The notes under the pieces were generated by a model. That model saw only the letters and a program-made list of their open reading frames with translations, was not told the origin of the DNA and ran no database searches. From IMG/VR virus record IMGVR_UViG_3300027806_000037, positions 64,001-83,939 of that record: a stretch of DNA of 19,939 nucleotides; one strand, given 5' to 3'. Below, piece by piece: positions 4,431 to 14,449 of this stretch. The position numbers were made by a program, and so were the translations under genes. Numbering within the stretch: position 1 is the stretch's first letter; every line of letters starts with the position of its first letter. The stretch is from a virus. Lineage: Duplodnaviria > Heunggongvirae > Uroviricota > Caudoviricetes.

Positions 4431-4738
4431 TGAAACATATTTTTTTAGTTTTTTGTGTTGTTTTATCGTGTAATGCTCCTTATAGTGAGGAAGTAATTAC
4501 TCAAGATGAACTTATTAGTAAGACCGATTCTATTATTATGGTAGTTGATGATAAATTAATTGAAGTTGAAAAAGAAAAACAACATAAAGAATTTGTTTTG
4601 GATTCTTTAAAAAAAGAACTTGAGTTAAAAACTGAATTGCGTGAAAAATTACTAACAACATCAAATAAGCAAAAAGTGATTAAGACGATTTATTATGACA
4701 CTGTGACATTTCATGTTGATAGTACATATAAAAAATAA
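4430..4738 (+). CDS. Lipoprotein with coiled coil (o-spanin-like candidate)
   Basis: MKHIFLVFCVVLSC lipoprotein signal, charged helical body, and TAATG coupling to the previous gene. Confidence 0.6.
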   Translation: MKHIFLVFCVVLSCNAPYSEEVITQDELISKTDSIIMVVDDKLIEVEKEKQHKEFVLDSLKKELELKTELREKLLTTSNKQKVIKTIYYDTVTFHVDSTYKK

Positions 4739-4771
4739 TCCCCCTTTCTAAATTAAAGAAAGAGGGATTTT
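4737..4771. terminator. Bidirectional intrinsic terminator between convergent genes
   Basis: AATCCCCCTTTCT / AGAAAGAGGGATT stem (12 of 13 paired), with T-runs available on both strands. Confidence 0.8.
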
Positions 4772-4772
4772 G

Positions 4773-4785
4773 AAACCTTGTGATT
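4773..4785 (+). repeat. Left copy of 13-bp inverted repeat AAACCTTGTGATT
   Basis: Exact reverse complement of AATCACAAGGTTT at 5672-5684. Confidence 0.9.
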
Positions 4786-4794
4786 AATTGATTG

Positions 4795-5577
4795 TTATTT
4801 TAATGCTGTTCCGCAGTTATAACAAAATTTATGTGAGGATTTTTTAATTCTTGTACCGCACTCTGTGCAGTATTTTTTAAAATCACTAACCTCATATGGT
4901 TTTTGAGATTGTGGAAGAATTTTCCATCCACTTGAATAACTATAGTAGTTATTAAATGTCTTATTATCATAAACAAACGATTGATTACTATGAGAACCGG
5001 ATTCAACCCTACCTGTTTCTATTCCAGCATTAGTGCTATAAGAAACATTGTTAGAAGCATATGTCCCAACGTTCGATGCGTATGTTGTGTTTGCAACAGT
5101 ATAGGTAATATCTCCAGTCATACCAGCACTTAATGTGGGTTCCCAAGGACTTCCAGCATAAGCTCCACCAGTAGTTGTACCCCAAACAGAACCACTACTA
5201 ATTATGTAAGAGGGATAATAAGAGATTTGATTTTCCAAATAAAATTCAACAAACAAGTCACCATTTAATAAAATAGCATTTCTTGTTTGGTTATTATCGT
5301 CAACCGTATAAGTTTCAAATTTGAATTTATTTGTTTTATCGAAATATCTTTCTAAAAAAACTCGCTGACCCGGTTTTAAAATTAAACCATTTTGTGAAAT
5401 ATATTCACCATTTAATTTAAGTTTAGCTAAAACCGTTCTTTGTAATGGATTTGAGAGTTCTATTTCAAACTCATCACCATTATTTAAATAAACATTTGTA
5501 CCGTATTGTTTAACTCGCTGCTTATTTTTTGTTATAAAAGCAGTTGGTACTGAGTTAATTGAATAATTTTTACTCAT
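4795..5577 (-). CDS. Hypothetical protein with beta-rich N-domain, S/T/G/Y-rich linker and C-terminal zinc ribbon
   Basis: C-terminus YCTECGTRIKKSSHKFCYNCGT has two CxxC motifs. Confidence 0.85.
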   Translation of the reverse strand: MSKNYSINSVPTAFITKNKQRVKQYGTNVYLNNGDEFEIELSNPLQRTVLAKLKLNGEYISQNGLILKPGQRVFLERYFDKTNKFKFETYTVDDNNQTRNAILLNGDLFVEFYLENQISYYPSYIISSGSVWGTTTGGAYAGSPWEPTLSAGMTGDITYTVANTTYASNVGTYASNNVSYSTNAGIETGRVESGSHSNQSFVYDNKTFNNYYSYSSGWKILPQSQKPYEVSDFKKYCTECGTRIKKSSHKFCYNCGTALK

Positions 5578-5686
5578 AATTTTACCTTATTTTTTTTATT
5601 TATGTTATTTGAGATTTCCTTTGTTGGGTGTTTAGTCCAACTCAAATGTCCAATTCGAACACGGAAATACCAATCACAAGGTTTTC
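5578..5686 (-). promoter_or_regulatory. Long, potentially structured 5' leader of the zinc-ribbon gene
   Basis: About 110-nt non-coding stretch, more GC-rich than other intergenic DNA, with several complementary blocks and two copies of GTCCAA (5635-5640, 5648-5653). TATAAT-like hexamers lie just upstream on the minus strand. Confidence 0.5.
5672..5684 (-). repeat. Right copy of 13-bp inverted repeat
   Basis: AATCACAAGGTTT, the reverse complement of 4773-4785. Confidence 0.9.
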
Positions 5687-5724
5687 AGTAATAATTATAT
5701 ATTATAATAAAAATTTGTGAAGTC

Positions 5725-6087: not shown

Positions 6088-6494
6088 ACGAAGAACCAAA
6101 ATACATGGATTTAGATGATAATATTATTCTATTTTGTGCATTTAGATATGCGTTAGGTAGAAGAACATATGTTGTTAGTACTGTGATTAGGCGATTAATT
6201 GATCAATATCTTAATATCCACCCAGTGGATAGGGAAAAATATGTGGAAGAAATTGATAAAGCAGATAAAGAAAATGATTTGGGTTCATCTTATGATAGAG
6301 AAGATTGGATGAAGGTTAAAGCATTATTTACCGAAGAAAATCATTGCTTTGTTGACACATATTTAAATCAAGAAGATTTGGAAAATAATAAACTTTATGG
6401 TACTTTTGCTGCGGTTAAACATGATGGGAAATATTTCTCATTAGATATGAAATCACATTATCATACTTGTAAAGAAATTAAAAATGAAAAATAA
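6084..6494 (+). CDS. Hypothetical phage protein (AFRYALGRRTY motif)
   Basis: 136-aa ORF translationally coupled on both sides. Confidence 0.75.
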   Translation: MNEEPKYMDLDDNIILFCAFRYALGRRTYVVSTVIRRLIDQYLNIHPVDREKYVEEIDKADKENDLGSSYDREDWMKVKALFTEENHCFVDTYLNQEDLENNKLYGTFAAVKHDGKYFSLDMKSHYHTCKEIKNEK

Positions 6495-6909
6495 TTTTAC
6501 CAAACGTCTTATTTGTTTACGCGGAATTCCGGGTTCGGGTAAAAGCACATTTGCAAGAATGATATGGAGTGATTATGTAATTCACGAAGCTGATAAGTTT
6601 TTTGAACAAAATGGTGAATATAAATTCGACCCCACCAAAATTAAAGATGCTCATGAATGGTGTCGGAATAATGTTGAGCAACAAATGAAGGATAATGAAC
6701 TAAATTCACAATATTATCCAGAAATTGTTGTAGCAAACACCTTTACCCAAGAATGGGAAATGAAACCCTATATGGAGTTAGCTGATAAATATGGATACAC
6801 GTTCGTTTCTTTGGTGGTGGAAAATCGTCACGGAAACCAAAGTATTCATAATGTTCCCGCTGAAACAATTAAAAAAATGATAGATAGGTTTGAAATTAAG
6901 TTGATTTAA
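6484..6909 (+). CDS. P-loop kinase (AAA_33 / polynucleotide-kinase-like)
   Basis: Walker A LRGIPGSGKST, HEAD, AHEWC, VVANTFTQEWEMKPY and HNVPAETIKKM lid-like segment. Confidence 0.85.
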   Translation: MKNNFTKRLICLRGIPGSGKSTFARMIWSDYVIHEADKFFEQNGEYKFDPTKIKDAHEWCRNNVEQQMKDNELNSQYYPEIVVANTFTQEWEMKPYMELADKYGYTFVSLVVENRHGNQSIHNVPAETIKKMIDRFEIKLI

Positions 6910-6911
6910 AA

Positions 6912-7568
6912 ATGGGATACTTTCAGAAATATACAACAAAAGGTGAAATCTTCTTCTCTTCGGATATTCATTTTTCTCACAAAAATATAGTGAGGGGAAC
7001 AACATCTTGGAGAAACGAAGATGATTCAATTCCAATGGATTCTGTTCGAGATTTTGATACAATTGAAGATATGAATGAAGCAATTATCAAAAATTTTAAC
7101 GATAAAGTTGGACAAGATGATTTATTGTTTCTTCTTGGTGATATTGCATTTGGTGGTTATCAAAACATTCAAAAGTTTCTTGACCGTTTGGTTTGTAAGA
7201 ATGTTTCATTGATTTACGGTAATCATGATCAAAACATTAAAAAAGATGTTGATAATATTCAAAGCATGTTTTTAGGTTGCGTTGATTATCGTGAAATTAA
7301 TCTTGCTGACCAAGATTTTGTTTTGTGTCATTATCCCCTCTCAAGCTGGAATAAAATGAATAAAGGTACTATTCATCTTCATGGTCATGTACACTTACCA
7401 AAAACGCATAAATTTGGTCGCGGTAAGAAGATGGATTGTGGTTTGGATGGTAATGATTTAAAACCATATCATGTTGATGAGCTAATTCAATTAATGAAGA
7501 ATCGACCAATTATGTCGGATATGGATATTGACCATCATTTGGACCGTGTTAAAGGTGTTATAGGTTAA
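6912..7568 (+). CDS. Calcineurin-like metallophosphoesterase
   Basis: All five motifs are present: SDIH, LGD, GNHD, CHYP, GHVH. Confidence 0.92.
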   Translation: MGYFQKYTTKGEIFFSSDIHFSHKNIVRGTTSWRNEDDSIPMDSVRDFDTIEDMNEAIIKNFNDKVGQDDLLFLLGDIAFGGYQNIQKFLDRLVCKNVSLIYGNHDQNIKKDVDNIQSMFLGCVDYREINLADQDFVLCHYPLSSWNKMNKGTIHLHGHVHLPKTHKFGRGKKMDCGLDGNDLKPYHVDELIQLMKNRPIMSDMDIDHHLDRVKGVIG

Positions 7569-13287: not shown

Positions 13288-13319
13288 CAAATCTATGAAA
13301 TGTTTTCGACAAAGACAAA
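13288..13319 (-). promoter_or_regulatory. Bacteroidota primary-sigma-type promoter for the guaC-dnaK run
   Basis: Minus strand TTTG 13319-13316, 20-nt spacer, TAGATTTG 13295-13288. Confidence 0.7.
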
Positions 13320-13326
13320 TATTTAT
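13320..13326 (+). promoter_or_regulatory. Putative late-promoter motif TATTTAT
   Basis: AATATTTAT just before ATG 13331, back-to-back with the divergent host-type promoter. Confidence 0.5.
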
Positions 13327-13330
13327 GGTT

Positions 13331-14449
13331 ATGAAAAAGATAAAATTAACAGAATCAGATTTATATAGGATAATTAAACAAGTTCTTTTTGAACAGGAGG
13401 AAGAAAAGAGAAGTTTTACATTTTCTCCGGGAGCATTTGCATCTTTTATAACATCATCATCAGGTGAAAGATTTGTTAAACATCTTAATAACAAATATGA
13501 TGAGATTGTTGTTAATGGGGGTTTGGATTTACAAGGAACACCAATTCAATCCTTACCGGATAATCTTAAAGTTGGGGGATGGTTGGATTTACGAGGAACA
13601 CCAATTCAATCCTTACCGGATAATCTTCATGTTGGGGGAAATTTGGAGTTAGATGAAACACAAATTCAATCCTTACCGGATAATCTTTATGTTGGGGGAA
13701 ATTTGGAGTTAGATGGAATACCAATTCAATACTTAGGGAATAATATTCATGTTAAGGGAAATTTGGAGTTAGATGGAATACCAATTCAATACTTAGGGAA
13801 TAATATTCATGTTGGGGGAAATTTGTATTTATATGGAACACAAATTCAATCCTTAGGGGATAATCTTCATGTTGGGGGAAATTTGGATTTATATGGAACA
13901 CCAATTCAATCCTTACCGGATAATCTTCGTGTTGGGGGATGGTTGGATTTAAAAAGAGCACCAATTCAATCCTTACCGGATAATCTTCATGTTGGGGGAG
14001 ATTTGTTTTTAAGTAAAACACCAATTCAATCCTTACCGAATAATCTTCATGTTGGGGGAAGTTTGTATTTACAAGGAACACCAATTCAATCCTTACCGGA
14101 TAATCTTTATGTTGGGAGAAATTTGGATTTAAGAGGAACACCAATTCAATCCTTACCGGATAATCTTCGTGTTGGGGGAGATTTGTGGTTAAATGGAACA
14201 CCAATTAAATCCTTAGGGGATAATCTTTATGTTGGGGGAAGTTTGTGGTTAAATGGAACACCAATTCAATACTTACCGGATAATCTTCATGTTGAGGGAA
14301 GTTTGGATTTAAGAGGAACACCAATTCAATCCTTACCGGATAATCTTCATGTTCCAAAAATTATTTTAATTAAAACCACGCCATTAAGTGATAATTATGA
14401 ATTGGTTCAGACATATAGTGAAAAATATAAAATTAATAGTACTTTTTAA
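13331..14449 (+). CDS. Short-type (20-residue) leucine-rich-repeat-like solenoid protein with LTESD-type leader (start revised to ATG 13331)
   Basis: MKKIKLTESDLYRIIKQVLFEQ leader, then 14 repeats of consensus VGGxLxLxGTPIQSLPDNLx. Confidence 0.85.
   Translation: MKKIKLTESDLYRIIKQVLFEQEEEKRSFTFSPGAFASFITSSSGERFVKHLNNKYDEIVVNGGLDLQGTPIQSLPDNLKVGGWLDLRGTPIQSLPDNLHVGGNLELDETQIQSLPDNLYVGGNLELDGIPIQYLGNNIHVKGNLELDGIPIQYLGNNIHVGGNLYLYGTQIQSLGDNLHVGGNLDLYGTPIQSLPDNLRVGGWLDLKRAPIQSLPDNLHVGGDLFLSKTPIQSLPNNLHVGGSLYLQGTPIQSLPDNLYVGRNLDLRGTPIQSLPDNLRVGGDLWLNGTPIKSLGDNLYVGGSLWLNGTPIQYLPDNLHVEGSLDLRGTPIQSLPDNLHVPKIILIKTTPLSDNYELVQTYSEKYKINSTF
13511..14350 (+). repeat. Tandem array of 14 in-frame 60-bp units
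   Basis: Units start at 13511, 13571, ... 14291. Consensus GTTGGGGGAnnnTTGnnnTTAnnnGGAACACCAATTCAATCCTTACCGGATAATCTTnnn. Confidence 0.97.

Follow-up and report, generated by a model that had tools for sequence, protein, structure and literature searches.

Complementary mRNA ends and a three-way-junction leader at a zinc-ribbon gene of a jumbo phage

The locus and its features

The DNA analysed here, a stretch of 19,939 nucleotides that we call the window, forms the last part of a virus record of 83,939 bp. The record, estimated to be 27% complete, contains a tail sheath gene and is a jumbo-phage fragment. On the minus strand of the window, two complementary arms enclose a gene for a 260-aa protein with a predicted zinc ribbon, together with its leader (Table 1). 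An earlier note, made from the letters of this DNA, had described exactly one gene and its leader between the arms, with one arm at the likely transcript start and the other between the stop codon and a terminator hairpin, and this layout was confirmed: a single ORF lies between the arms, the predicted +1 (~5686) is 7 nt past the TATAAT hexamer of the region's best promoter-like site, the perfect 5' arm begins 9 nt past that hexamer, and the terminator-like hairpin follows just beyond the 3' arm, between the zinc-ribbon gene and a convergent gene whose end is at 4738. Within the unit, the best promoter-like matches on the other strand scored 9/12, which is the chance level.

Table 1. Features of the zinc-ribbon unit (window coordinates)
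Feature	Position	Strand	Remark
Promoter-like site: -35 TTCACA 5721-5716, 16-nt spacer, -10 TATAAT 5699-5694	5694..5721	-	11/12, region's best
5' arm, predicted first mRNA bases; partner is the 3' arm or, alternatively, 5590-5584	5672..5684	-	
Three-way-junction leader RNA, k-junction-like core	5609..5673	-	Covariance model R1 match 5580-5695, E 1e-13 (copy in training set)
Leader helix P2	5673-5663 with 5619-5609	-	
Leader hairpin P3; linker UUGA	5662-5646; 5645-5642	-	
Leader hairpin P4; linker AAA	5641-5623; 5622-5620	-	
Start-region element AUAAGGU, 7-13 nt before AUG	5584..5590	-	Predicted to pair with the 5' arm before the 3' end is made
ORF of the 260-aa protein	4795..5577	-	Only ORF between the arms
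Zinc ribbon	4813..4869	-	Invariant C237, C240, C252, C255
3' arm, 9 nt past the stop codon	4773..4785	-	Directly before the terminator
Intrinsic-terminator-like hairpin (4769-4737) and U tract	4730..4769	-	Region's only terminator-like hairpin

A Shine-Dalgarno (SD)-like 4-mer was found at only 10 of 108 genes of this phage, whose start regions are rich in A, with maxima at -3 and -13. Bacteroidota lack SD sequences, and their starts rely on an A at -3 and on low structure (PMC6847099). The start pattern of the phage, poor in SD and A-rich, is that of Bacteroidota, from which we infer that its host probably belongs there. Homologs of the gene also occur in the Prevotella Lak phages and in other phages of 460-735 kb. 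Elsewhere on the plus strand of the window lie a polynucleotide-kinase-like ATPase gene paired with a phosphoesterase gene (6484-7568) and the gene for a 384-aa protein with 14-15 tandem 20-aa leucine-rich-like repeats and a 60-nt period (13295-14449); genes resembling purA, dnaK, IMP dehydrogenase/GMP reductase and an FKBP isomerase were recognised by eye in the window. On contig C1, the motif GTTATTAACA, possibly a regulator or origin box, occurs in several copies in both orientations at ~33,900-49,500, and long A-rich repeats lie at 5.9-13.4 kb.

End complementarity across homologous loci

The arms form a perfect 13-bp inverted repeat, and neither recurs elsewhere in the 84-kb contig. In the minus-strand transcript, three further pairs on its inner side (G-U, G-U and U-A) give the 16 bp that had been reported, and in the predicted ensemble of the whole transcript the pairs 5682-5670 have probabilities of 0.8-1.0. 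The earlier note had warned that 13-mers match by chance in DNA of this kind and that the argument rests on position. Indeed, 21 perfect inverted repeats in the window are 13 bp or longer (11.3 +/- 3.4 in triplet shuffles), so the length of the repeat alone proves nothing and the case is made by its position and by the homologs. With regard to position, a 13-bp match between fixed 25-nt and 30-nt windows of the genome arose 19 times in 100,000. The G-U extension, which had been taken as the sign of selection at the RNA level, is real but is not the best evidence for it, because its bases (5671-5669) are shared with the outer part of P2, a helix with covariation support of its own.

For the homologs, 237 distinct flank pairs were collected from five locus searches and eight annotated phage records and were sorted by leader sequence into 27 classes. 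The longest cognate Watson-Crick helix reached at least 9 bp in 17 of the 27 class representatives (63%), compared with 6.4% when classes were mismatched; a helix between a gene's own ends reached 9 bp at 11 of the ~107 other genes of this phage. The partners are the first bases after the -10 box and a segment 6-15 nt past the stop codon. Among about a dozen lineages, which are separate branches of the protein tree in a quick tree, the arms are unrelated (for example, GACCUUGUG, AAAGCCUCGUGUGGC, GAAACACCCAUAAC, AAGUGGUGCCA and UUGAUGAUUAAC), and each has its own complement after the stop; both flanks thus covary, the comparison that the earlier note had proposed to make. A TATAHT box precedes the 5' arm by no more than 20 nt in 119 of 157 loci, most commonly by 5-7 nt, and an inward-facing hexamer lies downstream of the arm in 10 of 157, the loci having been retrieved by protein match and the orientation of the cassette checked by promoter position only. 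Internal mismatches read on the sense strand are G-U rather than A-C by 70:9 in the raw count and by 19:9 after repeated contexts are removed. Most of these helices measure 9-14 bp, and some lineages have helices of 20-24 bp interrupted by bulges. Among the homologous loci examined, a clear end contact was not found in class 4, the Lak phages, L313 and L318. On this comparative evidence we conclude that the end complementarity is real, conserved and selected at the RNA level. A 5'-3' closing stem in the RNA, one of the proposals of the earlier note, is accordingly upheld by the covariation across lineages, by the constant geometry relative to promoter and stop, and by the probable replacement of the stem with a loop-loop contact in one clade.

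The families that neighbour the unit number 90 upstream and 78 downstream, in all orientations, so that the unit behaves as a self-contained cassette. In three loci (L382, L386 and L398) the 3' end of a tRNA-like sequence, and not a promoter, marks where the unit begins, and its 5' end may therefore come from tRNA processing; L388, a close relative, has a promoter at that place. At L395, an endonuclease-like ORF (1-900) ends where the leader is expected, and a 3' arm typical of the L381 lineage persists (1847-1865) without a 5' partner in the DNA fetched. The lineages of L200, L326, L337, L365 and L374 have a U-rich run after the long-range helix and no obvious local terminator hairpin, and there the clasp might itself serve as the terminator stem.

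Leader folds, loop contacts and the start region

Although the end stem had been recognised in the earlier note, two further features had been overlooked: the leader is a conserved three-way junction, and the 5' arm can alternatively bind the start region. The leader model was built from an alignment of 34 diverse leaders, in which P2 encloses P3 and P4, P2 and P3 abut without a linker, and the remaining linkers read UNGA and RAW. Compensatory changes occur at 17 of the 18 junction pairs and 95% of cells are paired, a level reached by none of 500 shuffles (slid registers give ~40%). Judged by this covariation, the leader fold is a selected three-way junction. No Rfam 15 family matched the leader or the 3' end at the gathering threshold, only neighbouring tRNAs being matched. 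A hammerhead identity was rejected when the core was compared by eye, as there is no CUGANGA and no cleavage linker. The covariance model R1 recovered leaders outside its training set (L313, L314, L318, L377, L389 and L391). In seven genomes it found one copy each, to be read as at least one and a lower bound, because R1, run on whole genomes with strict filters, missed the known Lak, LR756508 and LR745206 leaders; the junction was found in Lak by a descriptor parse, and the leaders of LR756508 and LR745206 were found weakly by locus searches. A scan for the P4 hairpin as a DNA pattern was discarded as mostly chance: R1 scored 6 of 100 loci, of which five were contigs also known from the protein search and the sixth was L106.

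The unpaired junction bases U, G and A are invariant. The junction resembles a k-junction, a motif that occurs in the TPP riboswitch and in the DUF-3268 RNA (Li et al. 2023, PMC10573300), in that P4 is closed by GA on one side and RA on the other, the third helix stands on the opposite, non-bulged strand, and the other two helices are contiguous. This sequence signature (UNGA and RA) flanks P4 in nearly all parsed leaders, and position 2n is A in about a third. However, the loop is one base shorter than in k-junctions, an extra base stands past the second A and the connector is on the other side, which makes the assignment ambiguous, and the leader gives no Rfam match to either DUF3268 or TPP. 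Because the loop and connector lengths differ, we call the leader k-junction-like only.

In one clade of 59 loci the junction is present and the 3' arm is absent. In all 59 the P4 loop UCACGG is the perfect 6-bp complement of the terminator loop CCGUGA, while the terminator stems vary. In L323, which belongs to an unrelated lineage, the P4 loop CUUGGG faces a terminator loop CCCAAG, a compensated pair. From this one invariant clade and one compensated case, the leader and terminator loops probably form a kissing loop, which would be a second way to close the message; CCGUGA could also be conserved for its own stability, since it contains a GNRA tetraloop.

A sister subfamily (L325; 958 proteins) shares 25% identity with the main family, and its phages do use SD sequences. 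Its leader differs, being a pseudoknot of two crossing helices in which 99% of cells are paired and 8 of 12 pairs are compensatory. Promoter-proximal bases again pair with a segment past the stop, here at 6-23 nt; the cognate duplex has a median of -17.0 kcal/mol, against -8.6 kcal/mol for non-cognate pairs, and an anchored helix was found in 30 of 63 loci. As end pairing is retained with another leader, closure spans a deeper split than either leader fold. About 29 of the 63 sister terminator hairpins (in L494, L497, L509, L512, L556, L564 and others, 30-80 nt past the stop) carry an inserted apical hairpin with a conserved loop motif like GAYRNAUGUAGCUY, for which there was no Rfam match.

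Without the 3' end, as in the nascent leader, the 5' arm is predicted to pair with 5590-5584 before the AUG at a probability of 0.82-0.98. These partners covary as well (CCUUGU/AUAAGG, CUCGU/ACGAG, UCUGG/CCAGA and CAUAGA/UCUAUG). The 5' arm of main-family loci can pair in this way with 5-7 nt directly ahead of the AUG. Of 12 lineages compared, 6 had the cognate combination in first place (permutation p 1.5e-5); the arms were defined automatically, and some of them reach past the predicted start on its upstream side. The partner of the 3' arm lies at -107 to -95 relative to the AUG, outside the ribosome-binding site. In the window, the predicted cost of opening the start region changes from 6.75 to 5.4 kcal/mol (median of other genes, 4.6); the gain in accessibility is small and varies by class, several classes being unchanged or worse. 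AAGG before the AUG is disfavoured as an SD site, because this phage seldom uses SD sequences and its starts are A-rich with an A at -3. The arm/start-region (anti-SD) pairing was not seen among the sister loci (mean z -0.27), and the loop-loop loci lack a 3' arm that could displace the lock, so a translation switch is not universal; the pairing is plausibly a secondary layer and not the common purpose.

The protein, the closed message and known systems

The 260-aa protein is predicted (pLDDT 78.6) to form an Ig-like beta-sandwich (residues ~10-116 and 186-222) that is interrupted by a disordered S/T/G-rich loop (129-181) and followed by a C-terminal CxxC-CxxC zinc ribbon, for which a Pfam Zn_Ribbon_1 match at E 1e-4 falls below the curated cut-off. 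It has 1,912 close relatives and 1,115 clusters at 50% identity with E < 1e-30, and the nearest Atlas clusters are almost all viral. A sequence search of solved structures gave no match, nor did Foldseek against the PDB at E 0.001; VIA-align returned generic Ig-like folds only (best Z 7.1), from which no function was inferred. An Atlas structure match (TM 0.58) leads to a bacterial cluster of which 13% of members carry DUF7918 (PF25534). The match is a structural lead to DUF7918-like proteins. The phage protein has an additional zinc ribbon and no Pfam PF25534 match at E 0.1; no functional literature on DUF7918-like proteins was found.

A link to a second gene comes from two related genomes. 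LR756501.1 carries a second, near-identical leader before a gene for a vWA-domain protein 107 kb away, and in the related contig L492 the same leader also precedes a vWA gene (L492:1883-2642). In LR756500.1, a vWA homolog is the next gene to the zinc-ribbon gene; such a homolog is absent from two near-complete smaller phages. A leader that is common to two genes points to one trans-acting factor for both, for which the zinc-ribbon protein would be the simplest candidate, and the junction is most likely a protein-bound operator, probably for the gene's own product. At neither leader copy of LR756501.1 was a clear end helix seen, which indicates that the junction and the clasp are separable. The vWA gene with its own three-way-junction leader and terminator (L484:851-1612, minus strand; L492:1883-2642) is that of a 735-kb phage. 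The vWA link and the probable RNA operator are the first functional hint for an unannotated family of >1,100 clusters at 50% identity.

For this unit we put at about an even chance the reading that the message is held by its ends, the full-length clasp protecting them and the junction acting as a protein operator. During transcription, the 5' arm would cover the start region as a weak lock; once the 3' end has been made, the longer 5'-3' helix would capture the arm and loosen the lock. The helix would also bury the 5' end beside the terminator hairpin, leaving the complete message protected at both ends and favoured for translation, and binding of the zinc-ribbon protein to the junction could provide feedback control together with co-regulation of the vWA partner gene. 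End protection, a preference for complete messages and autoregulation are all inferred here; stabilisation of the message by the clasp and autoregulation by the encoded protein, both of which the earlier note had listed, are plausible. It is a tentative and rather doubtful extension that an ancient zinc-ribbon gene makes closed-loop mRNAs throughout its family in large phages, in which a helix or kissing-loop clasp would license translation of complete messages or recycle ribosomes, while the protein reads a k-junction-like or pseudoknot operator that also controls the vWA partner.

Other purposes of closing the message are individually unlikely. The clasp could enhance translation by bringing the stop codon near the start region: ribosomes that terminate would be recycled to the same message, or would open the helix and in this way gate the next round. 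In both families the 3' arm lies almost always 6-15 nt past the stop, that is, inside or at the edge of the footprint of a terminating ribosome, and, to judge by the loop-loop clade, it is the proximity rather than the sequence that is conserved; the short distance may, however, merely reflect compact 3' UTRs. To our knowledge there is no bacterial precedent for an mRNA closed for ribosome recycling, our literature search likewise found no bacterial closed-loop translation enhancer, and we regard this purpose as unlikely. Still less probable is an RNase III-type stem that releases or destroys the message in the manner of icaR or the rRNA stalks. It would suit the lineages with interrupted helices of 20-24 bp and no local terminator, one of them directly behind a tRNA, but RNase III prefers about two helical turns, ~20 bp or more of near-continuous duplex, and most helices here are of 9-14 bp (13-16 bp in this phage). 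Moreover, with the helix at the predicted ends of the transcript, cleavage would take off only a few bases, and a loop-loop contact is not such a substrate; processing of this kind, which the earlier note had suggested, gained no positive evidence, and the loop-loop clade argues against it as the shared function.

Ranking below RNase III processing, and improbable in our view, is a riboswitch whose aptamer for a small molecule or ion is the leader and whose expression platform is the arm exchange. The invariant unpaired junction bases, the use of one leader by two genes and the presence of k-junctions in TPP riboswitches (PMC10573300) all speak for it; yet few bases are conserved for a ligand pocket, Rfam yields no match, and in the sister family the gene is retained with an altogether different leader fold. 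We consider it very unlikely that the clasp juxtaposes the ends for covalent circularisation or self-cleavage, as the substrate of a ribozyme or ligase. The ends are indeed side by side and a polynucleotide-kinase-like ATPase and a phosphoesterase are encoded nearby, but the neighbours of the unit are not conserved (90 upstream and 78 downstream families) and the junction lacks a hammerhead core and matches no ribozyme family; for circularisation, also raised in the earlier note, no positive evidence emerged. Hardly any weight is left for a DNA inversion or excision cassette or a chance repeat, in spite of the perfect 13-bp repeat, one of 21 in the window, and of the many genomic contexts of the unit. 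The arms differ completely between lineages and G-U is kept on the sense strand, the promoter and terminator lie outside the arms (119 of 157 loci with the hexamer upstream against 10 of 157 with an inward-facing one downstream), and no recombinase-like ORF was recognised in the window, in agreement with the earlier note, whose alternative of DNA inversion or excision is thus not supported.

Among known systems, the end-held message is most like that of Bacillus subtilis hbs (Braun, Durand, Condon 2017; PMC5737220). This monocistronic mRNA has a structured leader, and a 14-bp helix connects its 5' UTR with bases that closely precede the terminator; the helix limits cutting by RNase Y and stabilises the primary transcript. 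The phage message shares the long-range 5'/3'-UTR helix, the structured leader and a 3' arm directly before the terminator. However, the 5' partner in hbs is internal, past two hairpins, whereas in the phage it is the predicted first bases, and the phage contact is kept over hundreds of loci with sequence turnover, is apparently exchangeable for a loop-loop contact and is joined to a three-way junction. In Staphylococcus aureus icaR, pairing of the 3' UTR with the SD sequence represses translation and creates a substrate for RNase III (Ruiz de los Mozos et al. 2013; PMC3868564). This is likewise an intramolecular 5'-3' UTR pairing over a whole ORF, but the partner of the phage 3' arm lies 95-107 nt before the AUG, and the contact would release the start region rather than block it. 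In the type I toxin mRNAs hok and aapA, which combine a long-distance interaction with metastable hairpins, the start region is locked transiently and a 5'-3' helix takes over when transcription terminates (Masachis et al. 2019, PMC6733600). That final helix silences the mRNA until its 3' end is trimmed; these mRNAs encode small toxic peptides that are countered by an antisense antitoxin (PMC6733600). The predicted replacement of a transient local lock by a 5'-3' helix is similar in the phage, but its sign is opposite, because the final helix excludes the start region, and the product is a globular protein of 260 aa instead of a peptide of <~60 aa.

No description of the zinc-ribbon gene family or of its leader was found in the literature searched. 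In summary, the phage unit is a case of bacterial-type 5'-3' UTR pairing with two uncatalogued leader RNAs. In bacteria, such pairing has so far been described for a handful of single genes with little phylogenetic support, whereas in these phages it is kept over hundreds of loci and two subfamilies at 25% identity, with many natural compensatory variants. These variants, together with the apparent second solution of terminator-loop kissing, make directly testable the question of what closing a prokaryotic mRNA buys, for which end protection, full-length quality control and ribosome recycling are the candidate gains.
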